A stretch of 53,206 bases of DNA, the filler included, from Sluysia triapertura (taxonomy: Eukaryota), in the NCBI GenBank assembly GCA_046118255.1. It is 4 parts of 4 records of this genome, joined end to end, with 100 filler letters (N's around TTAATTAATTAA, not from the genome) between each part and the next. Parts side by side here need not be neighbours in the genome. Positions count along the whole stretch, not along the records: positions 11,991 to 23,089 come from JBJNIA010188920.1; 3 more parts are not named here. One strand, written 5' to 3'. The position numbers and the translations under genes are program-made. The notes below the pieces were generated by a model. The model did no database searches, was not told where the DNA came from, and worked only from the letters and a program-made list of their open reading frames with translations. Positions 20,401-22,763 of the stretch are shown here, piece after piece (within the stretch, counting starts at the first letter, position 1; each line of letters starts with the position of its first letter).

Positions 20401-21550
20401 CCAGTGGAAGATTTGGGTATGCACTTACTCTTTGTATGCCTTGAAAGGTCTTTTGCCTGAAGCAGATTATAATATCTGGACATCTTTTGTCTCTGCTGCA
20501 AGGACACTTTGTACCCGGATTGTAACAACAAGTCAGCTGGATGATGCGCATAGGTGTCTTCAAATTTTCTGTGATTTATTTGAAGACAAATATGGAAAAG
20601 AGTGGTGTACCATGAACTTACACCTGCATTTACACCTACATTCGTGCATCTTAGACTATGGTCCAGTTCATTCATTTTGGTGCTTTTCTTTTGAAAGGTG
20701 TAATGGGATTTTAGGTGACTACCATACTAATAACCGACATGCAGAAGTCATTATGATGCGTAAATGGTTGCTAGGCTGGCAGGTATTTCGTAAATCGAAA
20801 TCTTTACCAAAACAGGTTGAAGAGCATTTACAATTCTCTAAAAAGAAAGCATCAAAATGCAGCTACAAACTTACAATGGAACAGATTAATAGACTTAAAA
20901 TTATGTCAGACAGTGATGTTCCGCATGACTTCCGATTTGATGAGACTTTGGAGAATCTGCTTCCACCTTTACACCGAAGACATATTTCGTATGAAGAAAG
21001 TGACGCTCTCCTTTCAATGTTTAAGACTTTGTACAAAAACGACTGTGTACACAGAGTGTCTTTCAACTCCATTAGGTTTGACAGATGCACAGTAGGAGGG
21101 GAATTGCTATCAAGTGGAGACTACAGAGCTGATGCAAAGTCATGTGTTTTCGCAAGGTGGCTCAGAAATGATGAGAAAACAGGCGAACCTGTTATTGATC
21201 CGAAAGCTGCTGCTCGACCAGCATTGATTTCCAAAATGCTTAAGGTCATAATCTTTTTGAAAAGAGATGGTAAGACAGTTAAAGCTGAGCATACTGTGGC
21301 TGAGGTGAAATGGTTTAAACAACATGGTGATAGACATTTTTACAGTCATAGTGATTCATGTTCAGTTTGGGAAGTGGGTTTTGAACCTTTTTCCTATGCA
21401 ACCTACCTCCCACTAAAAAGAATCATTAGTCGTTGTGCGTATGCCAAGTGTAAGGTTAGGTTTTCAAGAAGTAGGGAGGAAACTGTACATCAGAATCAGA
21501 ATCAGAATCAGCTTTATTGCCATGTCAATGAACGTGAATTCACAGACTAG
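14409..21550 (+). CDS. CACTA/EnSpm (Transposase_21/TnpD-like) DDE transposase, join(14409..14561,15679..15762,17716..17767,18714..21550), ~1041 aa
   Basis: The main exon lies in ORF 18704-21550 and has motifs DVFDGQIWK, LNVDWFQPY, NLPREERFKEENII...PGPHEP, SSDIPASRK...CSKC, DPMHNILEG and HLHLHL...YGPVHSFWCFSFERCNG. Exon 1 gives a CDHC...YYDH zinc finger. Splice phases 0,0,1 are consistent. Confidence 0.9.
16300..16455. mobile_element. Relic of a fish-type non-autonomous hAT MITE (tacttttact-rich) in transposase intron 2
   Basis: Repeated tacttt(t)act motifs ending in ...tttatacatcactg, as I recall for the termini of teleost hAT-N elements. Confidence 0.5.
16460..17310 (-). mobile_element. Degraded Rex1/Babar LINE fragment (endonuclease end and tether region)
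   Basis: Minus-strand peptides HELPKYKQNVTCSTRENNRLHHCFTFLKDTYHSV and NDNMDHLADSV resemble Rex1 ORF segments. Many stops and frameshifts. Confidence 0.65.
17808..17885 (+). mobile_element. Relic of a hAT-type MITE end (TAGGGGTGGG...CGATAC repeats)
   Basis: Terminal TAGGG and repeated cgatac subterminal motifs, as in fish hAT MITEs. Confidence 0.35.
18743..18880 (+). repeat. In-frame 69-bp tandem duplication in the acidic linker of the transposase
   Basis: RNTRCHDEEHDNTDEEYVGVEEN / RNTRCREEESDNSDEEYVGVEED; units start at 18743 and 18812. Confidence 0.9.
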
Positions 21551-22763
21551 GAATTTGCAGTTAAGAACACCTGCTCTTAAAGAAGAACATACAGACATAC
21601 ATGGGGAGAGCAGATGAACAGGTCATGCTGCGACGGGGGTCGCGCTACCTTTTAACAGCTGGAAATACACACATGGGAAGGTTGAGTTAAAAAAATTTCT
21701 CTGATTCTATGTTTACAGCAGGAACACAGAGTCATACGAATAAAAAACAACTCGCGACAGAGCGAAGACATTGCTGGGGGAGGAAGGGGATGGGGCTTAG
21801 GTAATAACACATAAGAGGGGGGAGGGGGCTCAGAGGAGTCGTTGAAAAACAGGAACAGTTCCTGCTGAGCTCATCCATAGACCCGCCCAAGTCCAGAGAC
21901 TGATGACGTATCTCTAGCTCGAGTTTACAGAGTCCTTTCTCTATCAGCCAGTCCACAGACAGCCCAAACAGGTGGTGGGGGGAGGGATCAACAACCTCTT
22001 CTCACACGTAATCATCCTGGGAAGATTCAGATAAACATGGCCAGTCAAGGCCAGGCACTGGGAGCCAAATGGTAATCTTGATTGTTTTGGGACAAAGCGG
22101 CCTTGAATTTTCTGCAGCTTTTAAAGTTTTACTGACTCTGAGGTGGCGGACAAGATCCAAAACAGCCGAATTTGGGGTCCTTCCCGCCTCTCTCCGTCTA
22201 GAGCTTCACCCCGATGTTACCCCTTACAGACTGGAGGTGCGCTCCTGAGATGGAATCCTCGTCAGAATAACATCCAGTTTGCGGTTCATCTCCAGTAACA
22301 TAGTCTGTGTGCTCCCAGCAGAGCGGCAGAGACTCTCAATATTTCCTGTCAGCTTCTTGACATCCCGAACAGCTGACAGGGTCGCTATCACTTTTCGATA
22401 CACCAGGTATCCTCCTCCGCCGATCAGGAAGAAGCCTGTTATCATGAATCCAAATATGTATAAATCTTCGACGTCCTCAACGGAGAGTGGAGCAAGACAC
22501 AACAAGTTCCAGCCCCACGAGGAACTCAAGCGCCCGGCTGGCACTGTACCACTGGGACAGCTTCGCTCCCCACGATCCAATCTCAATGTGGAAAAAATAG
22601 TGTCGATTGCGTTCAGAGACCAGTTGACCAAATCCATAATTCCTTTTGTGTTCGGATGATTAGGTGAAAAAAGAGCTTGAGAAAAGCAGCAAGCCGGGAA
22701 GGGGGGGAGGTTTTCAGGAGCAGAGCAGAGGACGTCCTTCTCATCTGAGGGCTAAGCGAAGAG
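21489..22763 (-). mobile_element. Non-autonomous protein-coding retroposon with Rex1-type 3' end, inserted antisense into the transposase 3' end
   Basis: The minus strand ends ...caaattcctagtctgtg...ggcAATAAAgctgattctgattctgattctgat. GC-rich body with a single ORF and no RT. Abrupt return to AT-rich DNA after ~22763 (5' boundary approximate). Confidence 0.7.
22224..22637 (-). CDS. 137-aa single-pass membrane protein encoded by the retroposon
   Basis: Intact ORF. TM segment LYIFGFMITGFFLIGGGGYLVY followed by RK and an amphipathic/coiled-coil tail; two Cys N-terminal to the TM. Confidence 0.65.
   Translation of the reverse strand: MDLVNWSLNAIDTIFSTLRLDRGERSCPSGTVPAGRLSSSWGWNLLCLAPLSVEDVEDLYIFGFMITGFFLIGGGGYLVYRKVIATLSAVRDVKKLTGNIESLCRSAGSTQTMLLEMNRKLDVILTRIPSQERTSSL

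Follow-up and report, generated by a model that had tools for sequence, protein, structure and literature searches.

The DNA stretch analyzed in this work (the window) comprises 53,206 nucleotides of the Sluysia triapertura assembly GCA_046118255.1, in which four contigs are joined by artificial N44-TTAATTAATTAA-N44 spacers at positions 11891-11990, 23090-23189, and 38743-38842. The second contig (11991-23089) carries on its minus strand, at 21489-22763, a retroposon copy of 1,275 bp with a full-length 5' end, which encodes a small predicted membrane protein and no reverse transcriptase (RT). Three contigs of the window show 24-26% GC and observed/expected CpG ratios near 1, and the second, located between two spacers, shows the vertebrate-like values of 38% GC and 0.48; it is likely fish-derived, i.e., host contamination in another organism's assembly. 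Much of this contig is a CACTA/EnSpm element (Pfam Transposase_21, E 3.6e-22), and the retroposon interrupts the final codons of its transposase gene. Four public runs contain contigs that match the transposase, the insert, and some of the AT-rich sequence past the insert, so that nothing indicates a transfer into the AT-rich genome.

In its own 5' to 3' direction, the retroposon consists of a family-wide head with a pyrimidine-rich 5' untranslated region (UTR; 22638-22763), a 137-aa open reading frame (ORF; 22224-22637), a 3' UTR body (21558-22223; ~0.7 kb in the family), and a tail of the type known from long interspersed nuclear elements (LINEs; 21489-21557), in which a caaattcc block starting at 21557 is followed by AATAAA at 21518-21513 and (TGATTC)3.7 ending at 21489. 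The original prediction of a ~1.27-kb minus-strand element without RT or endonuclease, with one 137-aa ORF and this tail, thus holds: both ends are confirmed, and neither the reading frames nor Pfam reveal an RT or endonuclease ORF inside the element. The 3' boundary (21488/21489) is set by two runs, X4 and X17, whose related CACTA copies part from the window at 21487-21488 and continue the transposase past 21488. Because this continuation is absent from the window, even when up to 3 mismatches are allowed, the element ends at 21489, this copy has no target-site duplication, and target DNA was lost or rearranged. A 9-of-11 match flanking the element was rejected as a target-site duplication, since the CACTA continuation does not come after it. 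Target-site truncations, all of them short, were reported in 5 of 25 wild-type insertions of a zebrafish LINE (PMC2666801). The 5' boundary lies at about 22763 (+/- 3 nt), in alignment with the heads of 9 relatives. The element contains no long terminal repeats (LTRs) or terminal inverted repeats and carries AATAAA with a short tandem repeat at its 3' end. No Rfam match to a tRNA, 5S, or 7SL head was found in the element or in 9 relative loci, ARAGORN called no tRNA in the window, and by the criterion of a small-RNA head transcribed by RNA polymerase III the element is not a short interspersed nuclear element (SINE). No RNA structure is supported for the 5' head.

The ORF is not a chance product, as 140 of 215 candidate homologues were retained at E <= 0.001, the best at 4e-32. 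Clustering at 50% yielded 476 family representatives, 150 of which were inspected. Every organism name given for the homologues is that of a teleost, the range covering cypriniform, siluriform, characiform, cyprinodontiform, and other percomorph fishes, and neither viral nor prokaryote contigs yielded a relative. Fourteen named Anabarilius models fall into one 90% cluster, the nine full-length ones being 92-99% identical, and further protein clusters have 273 and 141 members. The Anabarilius models indicate many element copies per genome, and not the single-copy locus that the original prediction had named as a ground for abandoning it. At least half of the element's sequence words were recovered from each of 23 runs, which come from 23 studies and carry 23 organism labels, or 22 if a possible source is set aside; no RNA run was listed among them. 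One run contains 535 nt over the ORF with zero differences from the window, and another carries 650 nt that differ by one substitution and one gap and lead into a different 3' flank. The window ORF is therefore a current version of the family rather than a decayed copy, and its protein is ~50% identical to annotated relatives.

Copies of the element are embedded in unrelated DNA. Nine of the ten fetched loci open with a common head ~130-150 nt before the ATG, preceded by unrelated sequence (the tenth, L009, begins inside the ORF and was excluded from the head alignment). Among 40 gene models that extend far beyond the N-terminus, 33 also contain the head, translated in one of three reading frames 39-49 residues ahead of the start and behind 32 distinct flanks. 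The tails are exchanged independently of the body: L002 and L003 share 97.8% identity over 997 nt, but each has its own type of AATAAA-microsatellite tail. The L002 tail is of the caaattcc type, like that of the window (a score reached by 0 of 1,000 shuffles), and the L003 tail matches a free tail in L006 (0 of 1,000) and, weakly, the window tail (33 of 1,000). Two further tail types are suggested by gene-model translations, being read from protein rather than DNA. The 3' UTR belongs to the family as well, 23 of 32 long gene models reading from the ORF into the L002/L003 UTR and 20 of them nearly to its end; the window 3' UTR is weakly similar to those of L002 and L003, with 9 and 3 of 200 shuffles, respectively, reaching the score. 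RT is absent from all three copies followed at the DNA level to the tail (the window, L002, and L003). Each of the 69 longer proteins is a chimera that includes unrelated domains from the host or from transposons, and none has a precomputed non-LTR RT after the ORF; the one RT among them is of the Gypsy type and situated past the tail, and the one APE is situated before the head. With dispersed copies, defined ends, and unrelated flanks, the element is a non-autonomous non-LTR retroposon. The catfish proteins share 84-89% identity with their cyprinid counterparts and nest among these at 99/93 support, which suggests horizontal transfer; this identity and the near-identical DNA under 23 labels fit a recent spread. 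The protein tree, computed without P0109, P0140, and P0180, is largely unresolved, and the window protein sits on a long branch.

Several individual loci and models show further features. Between the body and the tail of L002, an extra ~120 nt (1240-1360) might have been captured from a short bipartite LINE. The 3' UTR of the element copy in L004 is split at 986-2275 by an insertion with inverted-repeat-like ends, and fish-type DNA in L005 passes at 1070-1613 into an apparent bacterial membrane transporter gene, probably in a chimeric contig. P0122, P0137, P0142, P0150, P0165, P0169, and P0180 are fish gene models (cadherin, SRCR, GTPase, Ig, NLR, PIP5K, and GatB) fused to the ORF, the fusions being likely annotation artefacts, as is the UniRef name "ABC transmembrane type-1 domain" of some members. 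P0422 and P0540 are Nothobranchius UniRef entries without a contig; their accession series, which we take to be transcriptome-derived, would hint at expression.

Selection on the ORF was estimated by the Nei-Gojobori method from the full ORFs of the window, L001, L002, L003, and L005. L004, L007, L008, and L010 were left out as near-duplicate, cut short, or frameshifted, and pairs with L006, which rest on 23 codons, are excluded from the values quoted. For codons 1-82, dN/dS is 0.18-0.29 in all 9 between-family pairs, and pN >= pS occurred in 0 of 500 bootstraps for each pair; a ratio near 1, regarded at the outset as fatal to the idea of a maintained gene, was not what emerged. The young copies L002 and L003 differ by 8 changes, 7 of them at codon positions 1-2, and show no evident constraint. 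Transposon genes, which are selected while their element spreads, usually show this combination of constraint between families and no sign of it among young copies (PMC7070016). We are confident that the anatomy of the element, its multi-copy dispersal, the exchange of tails, and the selection on codons 1-82 hold jointly.

The encoded protein has a single hydrophobic stretch (peak at residues 61-79, Kyte-Doolittle value 1.79), cysteines at residues 27, 47, and 104, and acidic residues before and basic residues after the putative transmembrane (TM) helix, a charge distribution from which we infer an N-out/C-in topology. The predicted ectodomain (residues 1-59; 22461-22637) comprises an N-terminal amphipathic helix, Cys27 and Cys47, an aromatic beta-hairpin at 32-48, and an acidic EDxED motif. 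The predicted TM helix (residues 60-80; 22398-22460) ends in Tyr80, followed by Arg-Lys, and shows small-residue spacing (G63/T67, T64/G68, G73/A77). The predicted cytosolic tail (residues 81-137; 22224-22397) has a basic patch and an amphipathic, coiled-coil-like helix, is variable in length, and is without detectable constraint. The ectodomain is 56-61 aa long in 123 of 123 members, and the tail spans 42-163 aa. Cys27 is kept in 43 of 44 and Cys47 in 44 of 44 members (26 and 28 of the 28 divergent members). In these 28 members, which are 28-50% identical to the window protein, Cys47 and Glu57 are invariant, and Trp6, Asp12, Cys27, Pro28, Gly35, Leu48, Glu54, Asp55, Asp58, and Gly73 are near-invariant. 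At least three Lys/Arg occur within 15 residues after the TM helix in 136 of 137 relatives and 28 of 28 divergent members (five in the window copy). The N-W-S sequon is found in 139 of 150 close relatives but in only 10 of 28 divergent members, and was rejected as a family feature. Eisenberg moments, computed without a shuffled control, reach 0.62 (residues 9-19) and 0.66 (residues 91-101).

AlphaFold2, run on the 28-member alignment, gave a mean predicted local distance difference test score (pLDDT) of 82.6 and a predicted template modeling score of 0.39, an earlier model being weaker. The model contains a helix at 2-15, a beta-hairpin at 32-48 (block pLDDT 87-89), and a long helix at 56-136. 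The conserved aromatics on this Cys-flanked predicted hairpin could serve as a fusion loop. Pfam gave no match at the curated cut-off for 44 and 28 members, the best PHROGs match had an E-value of 0.026, a PDB sequence search returned 0 matches with profile A1 and coiled coils alone with A5 at E >= 0.06, and Foldseek found nothing at E <= 0.001 in viral and PDB sets. The best VIA match (Z 6.1) lies on the long helix alone, so that the ectodomain was barely tested, and ESM Atlas gave one lead at 0.75; none of these searches shows the fold as new.

The ORF-carrying element is likely copied by the LINEs whose 3' tails it carries. The window tail is presumably of the Rex1 type, and to judge from the tail the helper is probably a Rex1/Babar LINE. 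Tail-pattern scans returned 0, 0, 3, and 0 loci, none of them a Rex1 locus; the three loci obtained have no microsatellite, look like chance phage matches, and were rejected. Rex1/Babar LINEs are described as having a conserved 3' UTR with an oligonucleotide repeat behind it (PMC6274825), and are reported to be often transferred horizontally (PMC7070016). Like them, the element has a conserved 3' region with a terminal repeat and occurs in teleosts; it differs in lacking APE and RT. Like Stringent-type SINEs (PMC3747384), it is short and borrows a LINE 3' end; unlike them, it codes for protein and has no tRNA, 5S, or 7SL head. Close precedents are the non-autonomous LINEs HeT-A, HAL1, and Ag-Sponge (PMC5786205), which are likewise non-LTR and RT-less, encode one protein, have a LINE-derived 3' end, and are probably transcribed by RNA polymerase II. 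Their protein is the ORF1p of a parent LINE, whereas that of the present element is a predicted membrane protein for which no parent LINE was found, and the present element also differs in that near-identical bodies carry different tails. Of the original characterization, the multi-copy, RT-less element that has a tail of LINE type and a selectively maintained ORF stands, but the premise that non-autonomous elements are normally non-coding is overstated, since the three precedents encode ORF1p.

The protein had been likened to the FAST fusogens of reoviruses. FAST-like small proteins were also proposed in mobile elements and fish viruses, namely sORF2 of the MDG1 group of Drosophila LTR retrotransposons and smORF2 of nackednaviruses (bioRxiv 10.1101/2025.03.14.642691), which give a FAST-like function a precedent. 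The element's protein resembles both in being small and single-pass, with a predicted N-out topology, amphipathic segments on both sides of the membrane, a basic patch, and a constant ectodomain combined with a variable tail; sORF2 is, moreover, a mobile-element gene. Of the features by which the preprint recognizes such proteins, a length of 60-210 aa (137 here), a single TM helix, a basic patch, and amphipathic segments are present, and a myristoylation motif and an ectodomain of 10-50 residues (~30) are absent. In contrast to sORF2, the protein has no MGxxxS/T and bears a Cys-containing ectodomain of 60 residues, and its element is without capsid or LTRs. The family motifs WSLNA, EDIED, and EDVED have 0 occurrences in the two supplementary files of the preprint. 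Reovirus FAST proteins, especially avian reovirus p10 (PMC3961370, PMC12945298), likewise fall within 100-200 aa, with no evident signal peptide, an ectodomain Cys pair, a TM helix, and basic residues. In p10, however, a 40-residue ectodomain contains an 11-residue cystine loop and the juxtamembrane cysteines are palmitoylated, whereas the element's protein has a 59-residue ectodomain, a 21-residue Cys span, no juxtamembrane cysteines, and no conserved triglycine. Lacking the myristoylation motif and the juxtamembrane dicysteine and having an ectodomain of ~60 residues, the protein as predicted is not a member of the FAST/sORF2 class. The architectural part of the comparison (single TM helix, basic patch, and amphipathic segments) survives, and the layout is kept; the triglycine and class motifs do not.

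The reading that we rank highest, with a probability of roughly one in three, is that the window contains a young, full-length copy of a widespread teleost RT-less retroposon whose membrane-protein gene may aid the passage of its RNA from cell to cell. The element would be transcribed by RNA polymerase II from its head, and its ORF translated into the predicted N-out/C-in single-pass protein. The borrowed tail would be recognized by the RT of a helper LINE, leading to target-primed reverse transcription and insertion. At the cell surface, a putatively disulfide-held aromatic hairpin and the N-terminal helix might engage a neighboring membrane, the basic amphipathic tail might act from inside the cell, and the expressing cell might pass the element RNA with the helper ribonucleoprotein to germ cells or new hosts. 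As the helper enzymes are supplied in trans, the ORF must help those copies that carry it, and a bottleneck per cell or per transfer would explain why a dependent element keeps a gene. A sharper version is doubtful: a vertebrate retroposon, capsid-less and enzyme-less, that has its own independently evolved cell-contact or fusion protein, in which a disulfide-held aromatic hairpin stands in for myristate. By swapping tails, it would connect to the LINE active in each fish host and would thus spread between cells and species.

Several observations weigh against RNA transfer. The class signatures are missing or rare: MGxxxS/T occurs in 0 of 28 divergent members and 1 of 189 gene-model N-termini, and a Cys at the TM end in 3 of 137 relatives and 2 of 28 divergent members. 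The GGGG run of the window copy, which had been compared with the p10 triglycine motif, is particular to that copy (GGG in the TM helix in 0 of 137 relatives and in 2 of 28 divergent members, one of these being the window protein itself), and this argument falls. The ectodomain is twice the ~30 residues of sORF2 and FAST proteins. A basic patch and an interfacial Tyr are ordinary for single-pass proteins, the preprint itself noting the aromatic belt, and fusion by sORF2 itself was not reproduced in culture according to that text. Unlike MDG1, the element has no capsid. From codon 83 to the end, dN/dS is 0.49-1.4 and mostly non-significant; FAST endodomains matter for fusion, though the cytosolic tail of the present protein is without clear constraint. 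The dN/dS estimates cover four lineages with dS up to 1.7, and the 23 organism labels may be close relatives. Finally, the window tail hairpin is no better than shuffles (z -0.99), a significant hairpin being seen solely in L003 (z -3.63).

Other roles of the same protein are less probable than RNA transfer, and each would leave the description of the element intact. The first of them, unlikely though next in rank, is that of an effector directed at the host, which could be a drive factor resembling a channel or toxin, could antagonize innate sensing, or could shield fish from a virus by blocking it at the surface, to the advantage of carriers or expressing cells. The conserved, predicted folded ectodomain with its acidic patch resembles a binding surface, the TM small-residue spacing suits oligomers, and in size and predicted topology the protein resembles the small accessory proteins of viruses. 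However, the copies are dispersed and young rather than fixed orthologues, a benefit in trans invites ORF-less cheaters, and no linked antidote gene is present. Slightly less favored is a protein acting in cis, whose nascent signal-anchor would tether its own mRNA to the endoplasmic reticulum or vesicles, where the RNA is stabilized or meets the helper RT. Such a cis preference is the simplest basis for selection on a gene of a dependent element (PMC7070016), and the constraint covers the N-terminus and TM helix but not the tail, and is missing from the young pair L002/L003. A bare anchor, on the other hand, does not need the near-invariant Cys pair, Trp6, Gly35, Trp43, and EDxED seen among members of 28-50% identity.

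Still less probable is that the ORF is the ORF1 of an unrecognized LINE, with the element as a HAL1/HeT-A-like internal-deletion derivative. ORF1-only non-autonomous LINEs are a known class (PMC5786205). The C-terminal half of the present protein is coiled-coil-like. Many ORF1 proteins bear coiled coils; a transmembrane ORF1p, however, is not known, and no non-LTR RT follows the ORF in the three complete copies or the 69 longer proteins, a sample that does not cover whole fish genomes. A further alternative, a lone host gene or its decayed retrocopies followed by chance by a Rex1 tail, might account for the weak 3' UTR similarity and for a pyrimidine tract before 22744 that resembles a splice acceptor, but the common head with unrelated flanks, the many near-identical copies per genome, a second near-identical copy in run X4 with a different 3' flank, and the insertion in a transposase gene have already largely refuted this explanation, which is highly improbable. 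RNA transfer between cells or hosts stays first in our ranking, ahead of the host-facing effector, the cis-acting tether, the LINE ORF1, and, last, the host gene.

The remaining features of the window concern the surroundings of the element. The transposase frame of the host CACTA/EnSpm element (18701-21550, plus strand) was recognized by Pfam and related copies; its final 20 residues come from the tail of the insert, translated in antisense at 21488-21550, which leaves the frame open and adds a QN-repeat end, and the usual continuation is absent. The CACTA/EnSpm element (13400-21550) is multi-exon, the plus-strand transposase gene standing head to head with a minus-strand gene from ~14136 and CCAAT-like boxes lying between the two; run X17 contains a 93%-identical relative on a high-depth contig. 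Within the acidic N-terminal part of the transposase, a 69-nt tandem repeat (18743-18877) is present in two copies, a number that differs in other runs. The AT-rich 5' flank of the insert (22764-23089) is not a CACTA continuation and is matched in part by run contigs; in it, ~40 AT-rich bases (22875-22917) are matched by many run contigs with differing flanks and are probably another fish repeat. In the AT-rich contigs, the ORFs at 10066-10590 (minus strand, 174 aa) and 6474-6851 (plus strand, 125 aa) have no Pfam match at the curated cut-off, the ciliate code yields no clear long genes, and a weak Rfam tRNA match at 32329-32400 (30.7 bits) is not called by ARAGORN.

The element is a real variant of the non-autonomous non-LTR class and probably an undescribed one. 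No description of the family was found in the literature, a search that did not cover Repbase and Dfam, where the repeat may well be listed under some generic name. Non-autonomous LINEs coding for ORF1p and FAST-like proteins of insect LTR elements and fish viruses were known before. In practical terms, the contig at 11991-23089 marks likely fish contamination in the assembly, and the family pollutes fish gene annotation with hypothetical proteins and chimeric models. A retroposon dependent on a borrowed RT should lose genes it does not need, yet this family keeps one membrane protein across fishes, and this protein, whatever its role, points to a membrane-involving step of the non-LTR life cycle that is absent from the standard model. 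Ray-finned fishes account for ~94% of inferred vertebrate horizontal transfers of transposable elements (PMC7070016). If the protein moves RNA between cells, it would be a new minimal fusogen, and the reason for the excess of transfers in ray-finned fishes would become testable.

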